From contig BPGO01000006.1 in NCBI GenBank assembly GCA_026003075.1, positions 7,928-71,927 of the forward strand: a stretch of 64,000 nucleotides of DNA, written 5' to 3'. Made by a program: the position numbers and the translations under genes. Shown here piece after piece: positions 9,857 through 48,248 of this stretch (position 1 is its first letter; each line of letters begins with the position of its first letter). The notes under the pieces are model-generated. The model was not told where the DNA came from. It ran no database searches and saw only the letters and a list, made by a program, of their open reading frames with translations. The DNA comes from Fimbriimonadales bacterium (GTDB lineage Bacteria > Armatimonadota > Fimbriimonadia > Fimbriimonadales > GBS-DC).

Positions 9857-11266
9857 TTAACCCACAGAGCCTTCCATCTCCAATTCAATGAGGCGGTTCA
9901 ACTCGACGGCGTACTCCATCGGGAGTTGCTTCGCCAGCGGCTCGATGAAGCCCGACACGATGAGGGTCAGCGCCTCGTCCTTCTTCAGCCCACGGCTCTG
10001 CAGATAGAAGATCTGCTCATCGCTGACCTTGCTCACGCGCGCCTCGTGCCCGATGGTGACCTCCTTCTCGTTGATTTCAATGTAGGGATAGGTATCGGTC
10101 TTGGCGTCTTCATCGAGCAGCAGCGCGTCGCACTCCACATTGCACTTCGCATGGTGTGCGCCTTCCAGCACCTGCACCAGCCCACGATAGCTGGCGCGTC
10201 CCGTGCCTTTGGAGATGGACTTGGAGGTAATGCGTCCTGTGGTGTAGGGTGCGGCGTAGATGAGCTTGCCGCCCGTATCTTGGTGCTGCCCGTCGCCTGC
10301 GAACGCGACGGAGAGAATCTCGCCGCGCGCGCCCGGCTCCATGAGGTATACGGACGGATACTTCTGCGTCACGCGGGAACCTATATTGCCATCCACCCAT
10401 TCCATCACCGCGTCGCCATACGCGACGGCGCGCTTGGTCACAAGGTTATACACATCCTTCGACCAGTTCTGAATGGTGGTGTAGCGCACGCGCGCGCCGC
10501 GTTTGACGATAATCTCCACCACCGCGCTGTGCAGGGCTTCTTCGGCGTAGACGGGCGCCGTGCAGCCTTCCACATAATGCACGAACGAGCCTTCCTCGGC
10601 GATAATCAGCGTGCGCTCGAACTGACCCGCGTTCTTGGCGTTGATGCGGAAGTAGGCTTGCAGCGGGATTTCTACGCGCACACCCGCCGGCACATACACG
10701 AACGAGCCGCCCGACCACACCGCCGAGTTGAGCGCAGCGAACTTGTTATCGCTGGGCGGAATCACCGTGCCGAAGTACTCCTTCACAAGGTCAGGGTACT
10801 CGCGCACGGCGGTGTCGGTGTCCACGAAAATCACGCCCTGCTCTTCCCACTGCTTGGCAAGGTTGTGATAGACCACCTCGGAGTCGTACTGTGCGCCCAC
10901 CCCCGCGAGGAACTTGCGCTCCCACTCGGGAATGCCCAAACGGTCGAAGGTGCGCTTGATGTCTTCAGGCACTTCGTCCCAACTGCGTCCTCGACGCTTG
11001 GTCGGCTTAATATAGTAAACAATCTCGTCGAAGTTGAGTCCTGACAGGTCGGGTCCCCAAGTCGGCATCGGCTTGCTCATGAAGATTTCGTAAGCCTGCA
11101 GACGGAATTCGCGCATCCACTTCGGCTCGTTCTTCTGGTACGAGATTTCCTCCACTACGCGGCGCGTCAGACCGCGCTCGGTTTGGAACACCGGCTTGAT
11201 GTCGTCATAGAAGCCGTACTTCTGCTTATAGTCCTGATCCAGATTCAGAATATCGGGCTGTGCCAT
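9857..11266 (-). CDS. sufB: Fe-S cluster assembly protein SufB
   Basis: 469 aa. N-terminal ...YKQKYGF... region, characteristic SufB core and length, and the gene lies immediately downstream of sufC. Confidence 0.93.
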
Positions 11267-11280
11267 GTTAGGAAACCTCC

Positions 11281-12051
11281 TTATGGGGCGGTTGCGAGTT
11301 CACCGCGCACCCAGTCGTAGCCTTTCTCTTCAAGCTGCAGGGCTAACTCCGCTCCGCCAGAGCGCACGATGCGCCCTTCAACCATCACATGGACATAGTC
11401 GGGTGTGATATAGTTCAGAATGCGCTGATAGTGGGTAATCACGAGGAACGAGCGTTCCGGAGAGCGCATCATATTCACACCGTTCGACACAATCTTGAGC
11501 GCATCGATATCCAGTCCCGAATCGGTCTCATCCAGTACTGCCAGCACTGGCTCCAGCAGTGACATCTGCACGATTTCGAAGCGCTTCTTCTCGCCCCCCG
11601 AGAAGCCCTCGTTCACGGGGCGACCTGCGAAGCTGGGGTCCATCTCCAGTTTCTTGAGGTGCTGCAGCAGAATCTTATAGAAATCGGTATATTTCACTTC
11701 GGTATTGAATCGGCGCTGATAGGCGAGGCGCATAAAGTTCGCGATGGTGACGCCAGGCACTTCCATCGGGTATTGGAACGCAAGGAACAACCCCAGCCGT
11801 GCGCGCTCGTCGGGTTCCATCTCCAAAATGTTCTCGCCACGGAACAGCACCTCGCCGTCGGTCACCTCGTAGCCGGGGTGTCCCGCCAACACCTTCGCCA
11901 GCGTGGATTTCCCTGACCCATTCGGTCCCATGAGCGCGTGAACCTCGCCGGGATAGATGGTCAGGTTCATCCCACGCAAAATAACCTCATCTTCGTCCGG
12001 CAATTTCACCCATAGATTGCGCACTTCCAAAAGCGGTGTCTTCTCTGTCAC
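11281..12051 (-). CDS. sufC: Fe-S cluster assembly ATPase SufC
   Basis: Walker [13 protein letters not shown] signature FSGGEKKR, Walker [16 protein letters not shown] start 7 nt after AAGGAGG. Confidence 0.93.
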
Positions 12052-12071: not shown

Positions 12072-12114
12072 TTAGCGTGGCTAAATAATACCCGATACGG
12101 CGCGGGTTTGTCAA
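12072..12114 (-). promoter_or_regulatory. sigma70-like promoter of sufCB with an abutting palindromic operator
   Basis: On the minus strand: TTGACA (12109-12114), an 18-nt spacer, TATTAT (12085-12090), then immediately the palindrome TTAGC-N3-GCTAA (12072-12084). The same architecture recurs upstream of sufD at 47131-47173. Confidence 0.65.
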
Positions 12115-12266
12115 GTGTGGAGAGCGCGCTTGAGGGCAGGTTCAATCACCGCACCATGGTGGGTCGAACGAAGAGGTAGGTTGGACACACATACCGTGAC
12201 GATACCTCCTCTACCTTGCCTCTAAAAATGCGCTCAAAACGCCGACAATTTCCGCAGGAGGGTACT

Positions 12267-13973
12267 ATGTACGGCGTTAAGCGATTGGGCGAATGGCTGC
12301 TCCAAAAGGGGAAAATCACCCCCCAGCAGCTGGAGGAAGCGTTGGCGTATCAGCGCCAAACGGGGCGAAAGCTCGGGGAAACGCTGATTGAATTGGGCTT
12401 CATCACGCACGACGACTATTACGAGGCGCAAGCGGAACAGTGGGAGTGTCCTTACGAACCGCTGCGGGATGCCACAATCCAGCAAGCGATGGCCGTTCGC
12501 CACTGGATCGGGATGGACGAGGCGACGCGCTTTATGGTCGTGCCCCTTCGCGAAGAGGGGATCATTCTCTGGGTCGCTACCGCCGACCCGAATAATGTGG
12601 AGATGATTGACCACCTGCGTCAAAGCACGGGCAAATTTATCAAGGTCGCGTTTAGCCCACCTGAACGAATCTTACAAGCCATCGCGCGCATCTATAGCCT
12701 GCATGGCGTTGAAGAACCACAAGAGGGCAACACGGTTGAGATAGAGGAGCGTGAGTCGGAAGAGATCGCCGATATTTCACACATCGATAAAGCGATTCTG
12801 CAGACGCCGGTGATACGCCTTGTTAACGGCGTGCTGTTAGAGGCGGTGGAGCGTGGCGCGAGCGACATCCATTTTGAGCCGTTAGAGACCCGCATGCAGA
12901 TTCGGCTACGGATAGACGGCGTACTCTATCCTGTGCGCGAGATCCCCCTAACGCTAATGCCCGCCGTTACGGCGCGTGTGAAGTTGCTGGCGGAAATGGA
13001 TATCGCCGAACGACGCCTGCCCCAAGATGGACGATTTGTGATCAAAACGGGCGACGCGAAGTTGGATGCGCGCGTCTCTTCCCTGCCTACCGTGTATGGG
13101 GAACGGGTGGTCGTGCGTATCTTGAATCGCGACAATGCCACAAAAAGCCTCTCCGAATTGGGGATGCCCGACGCGGTCGCACAGGGGATTCTGAACCTTG
13201 TTAGCAAGCCCTGGGGCATGATTCTGGTCACAGGTCCCACAGGGTCGGGTAAAAGCACCACGCTATATGCGCTTTTACAGCAAATCAAATCGGACCGCCG
13301 CAATATCCTCACTTGTGAAGATCCGGTGGAGTTTACCATTGAAGGGATTGGACAATCGCAAGTGAACGAACGGATTGGGTTGACTTTTGCGACGCAGTTG
13401 CGGGCGATGTTGCGTCAGGATCCCGATGTGGTACTGGTGGGTGAGATTCGAGACGCAGAGACGGCAGAAATCGCTTGTCGCGCAGCGATGACGGGGCACT
13501 TAGTGCTGTCCACGCTGCACACGAACGACTCTACCAGCGCGCCTGCGCGGATGACCGATATGGGCATACCGCCGTTCCTAATCAACTCGGCTTTAATTGG
13601 CGTCGTGGCGCAACGATTGGTGCGTCGGCTCTGCGAACGCTGCAAGGAGCCGATTACCATCACCGACCCGGCTGTGACCACGCTCTTTGGGGGCACGAAG
13701 TTGGAGTCCTATCGCGCGGTCGGTTGCAACGCTTGCAATAATATCGGCTACAAAGGGCGAGTCGGCTTGTACGAACTGTTTATCCTGAGCGACCCAGTGC
13801 GTCGCCTGATAGCACAACAAGCAGACAGTGAAGCCATTCGCGCCGCAACGCCCCCGGGTACCTTGTTTACTATCCAAGAAGACGCCTTACGAAAGGTACG
13901 CGAGGGGCTGACCACCATAGAAGAAGTGCTTTCACAGATACACATTCAGGGGGCAACGGCGCCTGCCGCATAG
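12267..13973 (+). CDS. type II secretion / type IV pilus assembly ATPase (GspE/PilB family)
   Basis: N-terminal MshEN/T2SSE_N-like domain, Walker A GPTGSGKST, Asp box, Walker B VVLVGEIRD, and a CxxC...CxxC tetracysteine motif. AGGAGG lies 5 nt upstream of the ATG at 12267. Confidence 0.9.
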   Translation: MYGVKRLGEWLLQKGKITPQQLEEALAYQRQTGRKLGETLIELGFITHDDYYEAQAEQWECPYEPLRDATIQQAMAVRHWIGMDEATRFMVVPLREEGIILWVATADPNNVEMIDHLRQSTGKFIKVAFSPPERILQAIARIYSLHGVEEPQEGNTVEIEERESEEIADISHIDKAILQTPVIRLVNGVLLEAVERGASDIHFEPLETRMQIRLRIDGVLYPVREIPLTLMPAVTARVKLLAEMDIAERRLPQDGRFVIKTGDAKLDARVSSLPTVYGERVVVRILNRDNATKSLSELGMPDAVAQGILNLVSKPWGMILVTGPTGSGKSTTLYALLQQIKSDRRNILTCEDPVEFTIEGIGQSQVNERIGLTFATQLRAMLRQDPDVVLVGEIRDAETAEIACRAAMTGHLVLSTLHTNDSTSAPARMTDMGIPPFLINSALIGVVAQRLVRRLCERCKEPITITDPAVTTLFGGTKLESYRAVGCNACNNIGYKGRVGLYELFILSDPVRRLIAQQADSEAIRAATPPGTLFTIQEDALRKVREGLTTIEEVLSQIHIQGATAPAA

Positions 13974-45730: not shown

Positions 45731-47110
45731 TTACGCGCTCGTAGCGATAATTTGCTCGTCTAACTCTGCCAAATCCATAAAGTAGCGCGGCGCCTCGCCT
45801 TTGAGTTTGCTTGCCAGCAGCTTCTGGATCGACAGGCGCAGGTCGGCAGGCTTGATTTCGCGCAGCACGACCTCAAAGAAGCCCATCACAATCAGTGCTT
45901 CCGCCGCGGCAGGGTCAATCCCACGCGAGCGCAGATAAAACAGCTCGTCGGGTTGCACGGGGCCCACCGTCGCGCCGTGCGTGCAGCGCACCTCGTTCGC
46001 GCCGATCTCCAAGTTCGGGATCGTGTATGCCCGTGCATCATCGCTGAGCAGCAAGTTACGGTTCGCCTGATAGGCGTCGGTATGCTGCGCCTTGGGATGC
46101 ACCCGAATCAGCCCCGAGAAGACCGAGACCGCCTCGTCGTGCAGCACGCCTTTGTAGAGCAAATCGCTGCGCGTGTTGCCCACACGATGGTCTTGCAAGG
46201 TACGGAAGTCAAGATGTTGCTTGCCGTCGCCGAAGAACAGCCCCAGCGGGCGCGCTTCGGCGCCTGGCTCGGTCATCAAGTGCTGCAACACGGTACGCCC
46301 CAGTTTCGCGCCCAGCCCCACATTCAGCGACAGCACGCGCGAATCACGCTGCTGCTCATAGTCGATGCTGCTGATGAACAGGCTTTCGCGCCCCATGCGC
46401 TGCATGAGAGTATGACGCAGCTCGCTGTTGGGCTTGTTGAAGACCTCCACCGCGCCCAACACGAACACCGACACGCCCTCTGGCGAGAAAAATGACTGGA
46501 CGATGTTCGCGGCGCTGCCCGTTTCGCAGACGATGACCGTATGTGGTAGGTGCAACCCGGGCGTTTCGAACCAGTGGACAATCTCCATCACGCCTTCTAT
46601 TTGCACATTGCGCGGGATGGAGACATACAGTCCGCTGTCCCACGCAGCCGTGTGGAGGGCGGTGAGTTTGTCGCCGGGGACAGGCGCAAGGCGTCCCAAA
46701 TCCCGCTCCAACCGCTCAGGGTTCTGCGTTAGCACCTCGTGCAGATTGCGCACCTGCACGCCCTGCTCGCGCAGGGCGTCGGGGATATGCGCCTCGAAGC
46801 CGAAACCCGCACGATGATACACCTGTACGACAGGATTCTCGGTCAAGAAGGCAGGCATTTGCGTTGGCGCGTCGCCGCGTGGGGCGTCGCTCCACGCTAC
46901 GGCAGGATAATCTTCCAAATGTAAGGTAGTTATATCCGTATAGCGCCAGTCCTCCTGCTTTGGCGAGGGGAGTGGCAGGCGCAGGAATCGATCAAAGGCT
47001 TCCAAGCGTTGCTGGATATGCCATTCGGGTTCCCCCAGAGCGCGCGCCTGTTGCTCAATCCGTTCGCGCGTCAAGCCCAGGGGAACCTCCTTAAGAACCT
47101 CGGTTGTCAT
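45731..47110 (-). CDS. sufD: Fe-S cluster assembly protein SufD
   Basis: SufD/SufB-fold C-terminal region (...RTLQDHRVGNTRSDLLYKGVL..., EIGANEVRCTHGATVGPV, LFYLRSRGI). ATG at 47110 lies 8 nt after AGGAGG; ATG at 47116 is an alternative. The rest of ORF 45731-47869 runs through a repeat array and is not coding. Confidence 0.85.
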   Translation of the reverse strand: MTTEVLKEVPLGLTRERIEQQARALGEPEWHIQQRLEAFDRFLRLPLPSPKQEDWRYTDITTLHLEDYPAVAWSDAPRGDAPTQMPAFLTENPVVQVYHRAGFGFEAHIPDALREQGVQVRNLHEVLTQNPERLERDLGRLAPVPGDKLTALHTAAWDSGLYVSIPRNVQIEGVMEIVHWFETPGLHLPHTVIVCETGSAANIVQSFFSPEGVSVFVLGAVEVFNKPNSELRHTLMQRMGRESLFISSIDYEQQRDSRVLSLNVGLGAKLGRTVLQHLMTEPGAEARPLGLFFGDGKQHLDFRTLQDHRVGNTRSDLLYKGVLHDEAVSVFSGLIRVHPKAQHTDAYQANRNLLLSDDARAYTIPNLEIGANEVRCTHGATVGPVQPDELFYLRSRGIDPAAAEALIVMGFFEVVLREIKPADLRLSIQKLLASKLKGEAPRYFMDLAELDEQIIATSA

Positions 47111-47130
47111 TCGCATAACCTCCTGAATAC

Positions 47131-47173
47131 TTAGCGTGGCTAAATTATGACACATTCGAGGCGCTGGAGTCAA
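47131..47173 (-). promoter_or_regulatory. sigma70-like promoter of sufD with the same abutting palindromic operator as sufCB
   Basis: On the minus strand: TTGACT (47168-47173), an 18-nt spacer, CATAAT (47144-47149), then immediately TTAGC-N3-GCTAA (47131-47143). Confidence 0.65.
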
Positions 47174-47296
47174 CAGGGGTATCGGTTTTTCGGTGATCCG
47201 GCGGCTGAAAGTCAGCCAATCCCAACCCTCCACGAACGCAAAGGGAAACACAGAAGACACTACTCGCAACCTATCTCTCACGGCGTGCGAGAGACA

Positions 47297-47713
47297 GGGG
47301 TAAGCCCCCCTCTCCCACGCGATGGGAGAGGGGACGGGGGTGAGGGCGACACCACTCCACCACGCGGTGGGAGAAGGGATGGGGGTGAGGGCGACACCAC
47401 TCCACCACGCGATGGGAGAGGGGACGGGGGTGAGGGCGACACCACTCCACCACGCGATGGGAGAAGAGGCAAAGGGGTGAGGGCGACACCACTCCCCCAC
47501 GCGATGGGAGAAGAGGCAAAGGGGTGAGGGCGACACCACTCCACCACGCGATGGGAGAGGGGACGGGGGTGAGGGCGACACCACTCCCCCACGCGATGGG
47601 AGAAGAGGCAAAGGGGTGACGGCAACACCCCTCTCCCACGCGGTGGGAGAAGGGATGGGGGTGAGGGCGACACCACTCCACCACGCGATGGGAGAGGGGA
47701 CGGGGGTGAGGGT
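47297..47713. repeat. tandem array of 9 full and 2 partial 45/47-bp G-rich (plus-strand) hairpin-containing repeats
   Basis: The unit is GGGGTGAGGGCGACACCACTCCACCACGCGATGGGAGAGGGGACG. Unit starts: 47337, 47382, 47427, 47474, 47521, 47566, 47613, 47658. There are three 3'-end variants: GAGGGGACG, GAAGGGATG and GAAGAGGCAAA. The array is intergenic, between the GAF gene stop and the sufD promoter. Confidence 0.9.
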
Positions 47714-47777
47714 ACGATCACTGAAATTTTTGCGAGCCAGAAACCCCGACGGATGCCACACCGCCGTTCGATGCAAT

Positions 47778-48248
47778 CTATACAACCAGTCGGGCGATTC
47801 GTTCCGCGATGACCTCCAGCATCGCCTCGTCCGACTCGTCAAACGCCCCAACCTCAGTGCCGTCGACATCGATCTGTCCGAGGATTCTGCCGCTGTTGGG
47901 GCAGCGGATTAGGACCACGATTTCCGAGCGCGTCTCGAGGTTGCACGCAAGGTAGTTCTCCAGCGTGCGCACATCCTCGACAATTTGGTTCATATTCTCG
48001 GCGACGGCGGTTCCACACACGCCACGCCCCACAGGAATGCGTACATGCTCCGTCGGCGGACCGACATAGGGTCCCAGAACCAACTCATTGCCTTTGAGCC
48101 AGTAGATACCTACCCAGTGGAAATGGGGTAAGCGGTCGTGGAGATACTGCGTGAGGTTCTGGAGGCGTTCTTGCACGGGTGTATCGGACGCCTCCAGAAT
48201 CGCTTCCGCCTCCAGAATCACTTCGGTTGCCAGTGCGTCATCGACCAT
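47778..48248 (-). CDS. GAF domain protein (free methionine-R-sulfoxide reductase-like)
   Basis: HWVGIYWLKGNELVLGPYVGPPTEHVRIPVGRGVCGTA...LACNLETRSEIVVLI...GQIDVD is typical of the fRMsr/GAF family. Confidence 0.8.
   Translation of the reverse strand: MVDDALATEVILEAEAILEASDTPVQERLQNLTQYLHDRLPHFHWVGIYWLKGNELVLGPYVGPPTEHVRIPVGRGVCGTAVAENMNQIVEDVRTLENYLACNLETRSEIVVLIRCPNSGRILGQIDVDGTEVGAFDESDEAMLEVIAERIARLVV

Follow-up and report, generated by a model that had tools for sequence, protein, structure and literature searches.

A palindromic 13-mer at the suf promoters of a Fimbriimonadales bacterium as a probable operator of an iron-sulfur, sulfur and iron regulon, with a cysteine-tailed MarR protein as its candidate repressor

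In the 64,000-nucleotide stretch of DNA analyzed here (the window; C6:7928-71927 of the assembly), which comes from an uncultured hot-spring bacterium of the Fimbriimonadales, phylum Armatimonadota, the two sets of suf genes, which serve to assemble Fe-S (iron-sulfur) clusters, are each preceded by the same 13-nucleotide (nt) palindrome, TTAGCCACGCTAA. Based on its enrichment, its placement on core promoters and its recurrence at the same genes across a bacterial family, we propose that the 13-mer is probably the operator of a dimeric winged-helix repressor, a likely Fe-S-loaded protein of the MarR family with a C-terminal cysteine tail (MarR-Cys), and that the regulon under its control, which spans Fe-S, sulfur and iron metabolism, would be family-wide. 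Fe-S cluster supply is essential, and to our knowledge the regulators understood to control its transcription belong to only a few families, namely IscR, SufR, RirA, Fur and OxyR; we know of nothing on its control in the Armatimonadota, which have very few cultured members. The assembly comprises 2.6 Mb in 18 contigs at 59% GC. We refer to the present genome as G000, to a congener with a complete genome as G012, to their genus as g1 and to other genera of the same family as g2-g6; L-numbers denote individual loci fetched from relatives or metagenomic contigs.

Both suf loci are read on the minus strand. The sufCB promoter, TTGACA-18-TATTAT, has its −35 box at 12109-12114 and its −10 box, preceded by GGG, at 12085-12090, and matches the consensus at 11 of 12 positions. 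The palindrome (operator 1, 12072-12084; arms TTAGC and GCTAA, center CAC) abuts this −10 box and covers the predicted transcription start; it is followed after 8 nt by GGAGG (12063-12059) and, a further 7 nt on, by the GTG start codon of sufC at 12051. The sufC gene (11281-12051) encodes 256 residues (TIGR01978, 339 bits against an NCBIfam cut-off of 213), and sufB (9857-11266, 469 residues; TIGR01980, 723 bits against 346) begins 15 nt downstream in the same direction. At sufD the identical 13-mer (operator 2, 47131-47143) abuts the −10 box CATAAT (47144-47149, preceded by TG) of a promoter TTGACT-18-CATAAT whose −35 box lies at 47168-47173 and which has 10 of 12 consensus matches; GGAGG (47123-47119) follows after 7 nt, ahead of ATG codons at 47116 and 47110. 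We prefer the latter, 8 nt past the GGAGG, as the probable start because its spacing from the ribosome-binding site is better and because the G012 orthologue begins at the equivalent ATG, which gives a sufD of about 459 codons (45731-47110; TIGR01981, 243 bits, cut-off 222). The 712-codon open reading frame called mechanically here (45731-47869, minus strand) is an artifact of a frame that stays open through the promoter and an upstream repeat array.

A promoter scan of both regions returned exactly these two promoters, and on re-reading, the 13-mer and its spacing to promoter and ribosome-binding site proved exact to the base, as the first-pass annotation of this DNA had described them. The arrangement at operator 1 is repeated upstream of sufC in G012, G019, G021, G023 and G024, and that at operator 2 upstream of sufD in G012, G017, G019, G020, G022, G023 and G024. 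The annotation had also remarked that no regulator gene sits beside either locus, and indeed the flanking genes encode a PilB-type ATPase, a DUF4446 protein and an extracytoplasmic function (ECF) sigma factor. The first of these, a PilB/T2SSE-type ATPase gene (12216-13973, plus strand), is divergent from sufCB, with its listed TTG start about 100 bp from the suf −35 box, and the promoters of the two share one short intergenic region.

The palindrome is far more frequent in the genome than base composition predicts. The exact 13-mer occurs 13 times in 2.6 Mb, against about 0.05 expected, which upholds the earlier judgment that its presence at two loci is unlikely to be chance and at the same time amends it: the element is real at both suf loci, but is not confined to them. 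Genome-wide, perfect arms (TTAGC-N3-GCTAA) number 21 against 1.5 expected, and one-mismatch arms show no enrichment, with 23 found where 48.5 would be expected. Within the family, 24 of 25 genomes have exact copies, two to 21 each; elsewhere in the order a copy was present in only 1 of 16 genomes from other families, and of 300 further genomes across the phylum only 8 have any, at most two each. The exact 13-mer is missing from G018, which carries TTAGCCATGCTAA at feoB (center CAT) and TTAGCCAGGCTAA abutting the −10 box of sufS (center CAG), so the arms are the constant part of the element and its center is mostly, not always, CAC.

Outside the leaders of arrays of clustered regularly interspaced short palindromic repeats (CRISPR), all eight exact copies in G000 adjoin a −10-like box. 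The genes behind them, named by Pfam and NCBIfam, are sufC, sufD, a Rieske ferredoxin gene with sufS behind it, the Fe-S carrier ATPase gene apbC/mrp, the cysteine synthase gene cysK/M, feoB, a DUF1028-TPR gene and a gene for a multihaem cytochrome c. The congener has the site at the same genes and also at an ABM monooxygenase gene, which is located after a substrate-binding-protein gene. For five other genera, all sites were fetched and the downstream open reading frames were named by BLAST against the G000 proteins; across g1-g6 the site recurs at orthologous sufC, sufD, apbC, feoB, DUF1028, cysK, ABM, cytochrome and Rieske-sufS genes. A rhodanese gene (g5), a prepilin-like gene and htpX (one genome), all named by eye, also bear it. 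The genome-wide search for enrichment at Fe-S, iron or stress genes that had been suggested earlier is thus positive, with about 10 promoters and the same genes in at least six genera. Direct observation thus covers a motif that is enriched, its core-promoter placement and the conservation of a functionally coherent regulon.

The multihaem cytochrome c is QrcA/ActA-like, and its site is divergent from the gene and abuts a CRP/FNR-like box, TTGTGATAnAAATCACGAA (C1:322640-322870; L025, L087, L100, L109). Downstream of the site at C1:322669, on the other strand, conservation between G000 and G012 extends over about 190 nt with no open reading frame, and a small RNA was considered; the cytochrome promoter is the simpler reading because other genera place this site upstream of a divergent multihaem cytochrome gene, beside the CRP/FNR-like box. 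The prepilin-type gene, whose product has a prepilin-type N-terminal domain (GFTLIELLVVIAI...), has a feoB-style promoter with the palindrome in its spacer in L088 (G017) and L113 (G024). The order of the suf genes differs in other genomes: sufC follows sufB in G018, G038 and G040, and at L067 (G025), L068 (G029) and L070 (G027), which represent other families of the order, the gene ahead of sufC ends in a Cys-rich motif, C-x8-CC-x5-C, and is Rrf2-like by eye. Since sufC lies inside operons in those genomes, split suf genes with separate operators are peculiar to the present family. No palindrome common to the upstream regions of sufC and marR was found in the other families.

The position of the 13-mer on its promoters is informative. 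In a frequency matrix of 61 unique gene-linked sites, the 13-mer has GGG-TATAAT adjoining its 5′ end and is followed by purines at positions +1 and +3. Gene-linked copies have nothing in common except the −10 box and the 13-mer, and occur in two arrangements. At the suf genes, apbC, cysK and the DUF1028 gene the site stands right after the −10 box and would span about −6 to +7, assuming a start about 7 nt past that box; at feoB, the ABM gene and the regulator gene the promoter has the form TTGAyA-N18-TATAyT, and the site occupies its 18-nt spacer. The center is found in both orientations (for example in L026, L055 and L105). The two arrangements and both orientations together fit a symmetric DNA-binding dimer that blocks RNA polymerase, and the geometry argues strongly for repression by promoter occlusion. 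The proposal of the first-pass annotation that the palindrome is a repressor operator for an Fe-S regulator thereby gains the support of a promoter-bound set of Fe-S, iron and cysteine genes, with repression itself as our inference. An extended 19-bp palindrome (TAT...ATA) turned out to be only partly real, its 5′ flank being the −10 box and its 3′ flank merely purine-rich.

Eleven of the 21 perfect-arm copies lie in repeated sequence, namely the roughly 350-bp CRISPR leaders, an orphan leader and a module at a candidate replication origin (oriC). In G000 the leader of each of the five CRISPR arrays, which represent two repeat types, contains one or two palindromes, as does that of one orphan repeat (C12:10490-10838, C2:185743-186103, C2:212074-212422, C4:167557-167906, C9:36713-36865 and C2:301473-301627). 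These lie 150-350 bp upstream of the first repeat and 77 bp apart, flanking an inverted repeat, TGCGCGAACCTC...GAGGTTCGCGCA, and far from the apparent promoter of the CRISPR RNA precursor (TTGACA-18-TAAACT), which adjoins repeat 1. In G012 the CRISPR leaders hold three copies, with the 13-mer kept though the flanks have diverged; the site lists of the other five genera include no CRISPR-leader copy, so the presence of such copies in g1 only looks like a genus-level addition. The candidate oriC (C11:26793-27100) is the densest cluster of DnaA boxes in the genome, with nine boxes in 400 bp, and lies near a local minimum of cumulative GC skew. It contains one palindrome and a GAACTCAAA...GTCTACC module common to the CRISPR leaders. 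This arrangement recurs in G012 (L022), G017 (L107) and G022 (L093), beside recF in the latter two, and is shared by two genera; a simple motif scan of the 84%-complete genome did not find the DnaA gene. The copies in CRISPR leaders and at oriC imply that the binder has targets outside Fe-S metabolism.

Could the 13-mer be something other than an operator? That so many copies sit within repeated sequence might suggest remnants of a dispersed repeat or mobile element without any regulatory role, and genome-wide dispersal without positional bias, for example within a dispersed repeat, had been named in advance as an outcome that would speak against an operator. The CRISPR-leader copies do belong to such a repeat, but the gene-linked ones are strictly biased to core promoters, have only the −10 box and the 13-mer in common, and are kept at orthologous genes across genera with diverged flanks, while the leader copies are seen in g1 only; we regard this explanation as the least credible of all. 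Hardly better are the prospects of a 5′-terminal RNA hairpin (UUAGC-CAC-GCUAA) that stabilizes or regulates the mRNA in the manner of an iron-responsive element. The center does read CAC in the sense orientation at all eight gene-linked G000 sites, and an extended 17-mer folds better than shuffled sequence (−3.8 kcal/mol, z = −6.7). Such a hairpin would however be weak for a hot-spring organism and is missing from the minimum-energy fold of the sufC leader. Moreover, where the −10 box abuts the site, the loop itself would contain the transcription start, and the promoters of feoB, ABM and marR have the site upstream of the −10 box and outside the transcript; reversed centers exist as well. The variable position and the two orientations together all but exclude the hairpin. 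It is also very improbable that the 13-mer is a general core-promoter or initially transcribed element read by RNA polymerase or sigma factor, as its extreme invariance and its nearly constant fusion to GGG-TATAAT might suggest. Only about 10 promoters in the genome have the 13-mer, and they form a functionally coherent set; it stands after the −10 box at some and in the spacer at others, both orientations occur, some copies lie away from any recognizable promoter (in the CRISPR leaders and at oriC), and no promoter of a ribosomal-protein, rRNA or other highly expressed gene is among the listed sites.

If the 13-mer is an operator, its binder is probably MarR-Cys, a protein of 192 residues (C1:499112-499690) that scores 59.6 bits against PF01047 (cut-off 24.6) over profile positions 1-59 of 59 and is the only full-length MarR-domain protein encoded in G000. 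Among the three candidate regulators, of the Rrf2, Fur/PerR-like and MarR families, it alone is tied to the palindrome. Of the 16 MarR-Cys loci of genus g1 that include the upstream region, 13 carry TATTTAGCCACGCTAc/t just before the −10 box and read TATTTAGCCACGCTA(c/t)-N10-gggTATCCT ahead of the gene; the exact 13-mer also stands upstream of the MarR-Cys gene in G019, from another genus, and abuts its −10 box in reverse orientation in G021. The 13-mer thus has the features of a MarR/SlyA-type operator: TTAGC/GCTAA-like arms, overlap with the promoter and presence at the regulator's own gene. In the AlphaFold2 model the MarR core has a predicted local distance difference test score (pLDDT) of 80-94. 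The C-terminal tail reads CxxCG-x6-CP-x9-C, and in an alignment of 27 homologues C169, L170, C172, G173, C180 and P181 are invariant, with C191 and the PSATNM of the recognition helix nearly so. Beyond the MarR family, MarR-Cys has no assignment in NCBIfam: neither it nor six distant homologues score above the cut-off of any model there, and SufR (TIGR02702, 18.6 bits against 178.8), the Zn sensor AdcR (NF038251, 28.5 against 175), SlyA (29 against 120) and MntR are all far below.

Relatives of MarR-Cys beyond the Fimbriimonadales tell a similar story. A search of 1.84 billion representative proteins returned 388 homologues at E<1e-10, most of which align through the tail with the pattern C-L-x-C-G-x3-[H/D]-x3-C. 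The metagenomic contigs of 11 distant homologues (30-45% identity) were examined for neighboring genes: four are followed by a NifS-type cysteine desulfurase gene and one each by genes for NifU, for a serine acetyltransferase (CysE) and for a sulfite-reductase-like protein (by eye), and one lies beside a MoaA-type radical S-adenosylmethionine gene. Five have 5-3-5 palindromes at or right after their own −10 box, GTAACCAGGTTAC (twice in L082, once in L084), TTAGCCACAGTAA, TTAGCCATGTTAG and ATAATCAGATTAT, summarized as nTArCCAsGyTAn. These palindromes tie the family to this type of operator independently of the Fimbriimonadales genomes. In the few cases at hand the type of arm seems to track the recognition helix, TTAGC going with S-[YF]-P-[SA]-A-T-[NR] and GTAAC with P-[GA]-A-[TV]-K. 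That the MarR-Cys gene carries the site in many genomes, and that its family is linked genomically to cysteine and Fe-S genes, is plain from these data.

Other binders have to be weighed against MarR-Cys. The single Rrf2-family protein of G000 (IscR/RirA-like, C2:258020-258460; C-x7-C-x5-C-x2-H; TIGR00738, 113 bits) might serve the same operator and regulon: Rrf2 proteins are the classical Fe-S and iron regulators, and the Cys-rich genes directly upstream of sufC in other families of the order are Rrf2-like by eye. We consider this improbable, because the −10 box of the Rrf2 gene overlaps a different palindrome, ATTCAGTTGAAT, with no TTAGC-N3-GCTAA there, because no Rrf2 gene follows any of the about 100 sites examined across more than 15 genomes, and because the arms of the 13-mer match the consensus of the MarR-family protein SlyA. 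The first-pass annotation had not recognized the palindrome as a site of IscR or SufR, and our tests likewise place it with neither IscR/Rrf2 nor SufR. The Rrf2 gene also stands behind a haem-copper oxidase/SCO1 cluster, as NsrR-type regulators do; in the order of the genes (C2:255082-258460), a haem-copper oxidase or nitric oxide reductase-like gene and an SCO1-like gene precede it, which suggests an NsrR-type role. The sole Fur-family gene, PerR-like, was set aside as a candidate, as it has a box of its own after its −10 box: GAAAATGATTTTC at C1:255915-255927, directly past TTGACA-N17-TATAAT and with no second exact copy in the genome. A DtxR-family candidate was dropped as well, the only DtxR helix-turn-helix match over cut-off being MarR-Cys itself. 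It is somewhat easier to imagine, though still unlikely, that MarR-Cys is the binder and responds to a signal different from an Fe-S cluster: free Fe(II), a thiol/disulfide or persulfide state, or none at all, its tail then being a structural Zn knuckle. Characterized MarR sensors use Zn or cysteine oxidation (PMC11672702), the CxxC...C...C pattern would suit Zn binding too, induction by oxidative stress is typical of suf systems, and CysE and the sulfite-reductase-like gene (by eye) as neighbors of homologues point to sulfur as much as to Fe-S. On the other hand, the regulon combines iron uptake, sulfur supply and cluster assembly, which a cluster would integrate best, and the Cys-tailed winged-helix proteins whose cofactor has been determined, ArnR and SufR, carry [4Fe-4S].

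We therefore return to MarR-Cys as the probable repressor and propose a mechanism for it. A dimer bound on the core promoter would exclude RNA polymerase from three arms of the regulon, for Fe-S assembly (sufCB, sufD, Rieske-sufS, apbC), for sulfur and cysteine supply (cysK/M, a rhodanese) and for iron acquisition (feoB, the ABM haem-monooxygenase-like gene), and from a few other genes. The Cys tail would hold an Fe-S cluster, or iron, and it would be the cofactor-loaded form that binds DNA. Fe-S shortage or oxidative damage would lead to loss of the cofactor and thus to release of the promoters, and the net effect would be feedback control resembling that by SufR, IscR and RirA. That a cluster on the tail is the signal, with the holo form binding DNA, has in our estimate about an even chance; it is suggested by analogy with SufR and ArnR and by the way in which the regulon combines iron, sulfur and assembly genes.

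Several observations weigh against this proposal. The tail of about 30 residues is modeled with low confidence (pLDDT 48-70), and might instead be a Zn ligand or a thiol switch. The site upstream of the MarR-Cys gene in G000 itself is degenerate, TTAGCTGTGCTCC, and in genera g2 and g5 there is none upstream of this gene, so autoregulation is not universal; nor is the presence of a regulator gene within a regulon proof that the regulator is the binder. Elsewhere in the order, other families have homologues at about 40% identity with the PSATNM recognition helix intact, in genomes without the motif. The motif is unusually invariant for an operator, its non-symmetric center CAC included, and variants with one mismatch are not enriched. 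Finally, the copies in CRISPR leaders and among DnaA boxes are a misfit for a pure Fe-S regulon.

These data nonetheless provide an operator, about 10 target promoters and a candidate regulator, and hence a testable regulon. MarR-Cys may be the first MarR protein that responds to iron or Fe-S, and because its homologues elsewhere lie beside nifS, nifU or cysE, the result may extend beyond one family. The operator at oriC and in CRISPR leaders forms an unexplained link of cofactor homeostasis, replication and immunity. More speculatively, the Cys-tailed MarR proteins with CxxCG-x6-C, counted at 388 representatives, might be a widespread and previously unrecognized class of Fe-S sensors, one that joins the Rrf2 type (IscR, RirA) and SufR as dedicated regulators of Fe-S biogenesis and is here also wired to oriC and to every CRISPR leader, which we think doubtful but worth stating; if true, cofactor status would gate Fe-S supply, replication initiation and CRISPR array activity.

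The palindrome itself most resembles the operators of SlyA and RovA, whose half-sites, TTAGC/GCTAA, are identical to its arms. The SlyA consensus is TTAGCAAGCTAA, and it is also found 22 bp upstream of slyA (PMC5797941). In both cases the site lies just upstream of the regulator's own gene and a dimeric MarR-family protein is the binder, here a candidate one. SlyA differs in its 2-nt center, as opposed to the 3-nt CAC of the 13-mer, in acting mainly as an H-NS counter-silencer at AT-rich DNA and not as an Fe-S repressor, and in the absence of a Cys tail.

In function the nearest known regulators belong to other families. SufR, a winged helix-turn-helix repressor of suf genes in cyanobacteria and actinobacteria, has a C-terminal, Cys-ligated [4Fe-4S] cluster (PMC6034842). 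Like the candidate, it combines a winged-helix N-terminus with C-terminal cysteines, suf promoter repression and autoregulation, the last two inferred for MarR-Cys; unlike it, SufR belongs to another protein family and has another Cys spacing. The candidate, in contrast to SufR, is encoded outside the suf operon, and its regulon would extend over about 10 promoters, including those for iron uptake. SufR binds sites of the type CAAC-N6-GTTG or ACACT-N5-TGTGA, which differ from the 13-mer. IscR and RirA exert global feedback on Fe-S biogenesis, with RirA also controlling iron uptake, from operators that overlap core promoters, as we propose here, but they have the Rrf2 fold, not that of MarR, and longer operators.

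Among proteins with a MarR-like fold, ArnR of Corynebacterium glutamicum binds [4Fe-4S] through three cysteines, and its holo form binds DNA and represses (PMC12343034). Judged by description, it resembles the candidate in its MarR/ArsR-like winged helix-turn-helix, its dimerization helix and its C-terminal sensory region. ArnR differs in sensing nitric oxide and controlling narKGHJI and hmp, and its C179, C193 and C223, 14 and 30 residues apart, lie in a larger domain, whereas the candidate has a compact CxxC-x7-C-x10-C tail. AdcR and ZitR are, as proposed for the candidate, metal-responsive MarR proteins whose metal-bound form binds DNA; their Zn sites, however, are in the MarR core and they control Zn uptake. 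Such Zn sensors are the only characterized metalloregulatory MarR proteins according to a 2024 review (PMC11672702), and in our literature search neither the 13-mer nor any MarR-type regulator controlling suf, isc or nif genes turned up. Most likely, then, we are looking at feedback control of a known kind, that of Fe-S cluster supply, carried here by a previously undescribed family of MarR-type regulators through a SlyA-like operator with a 3-nt center.

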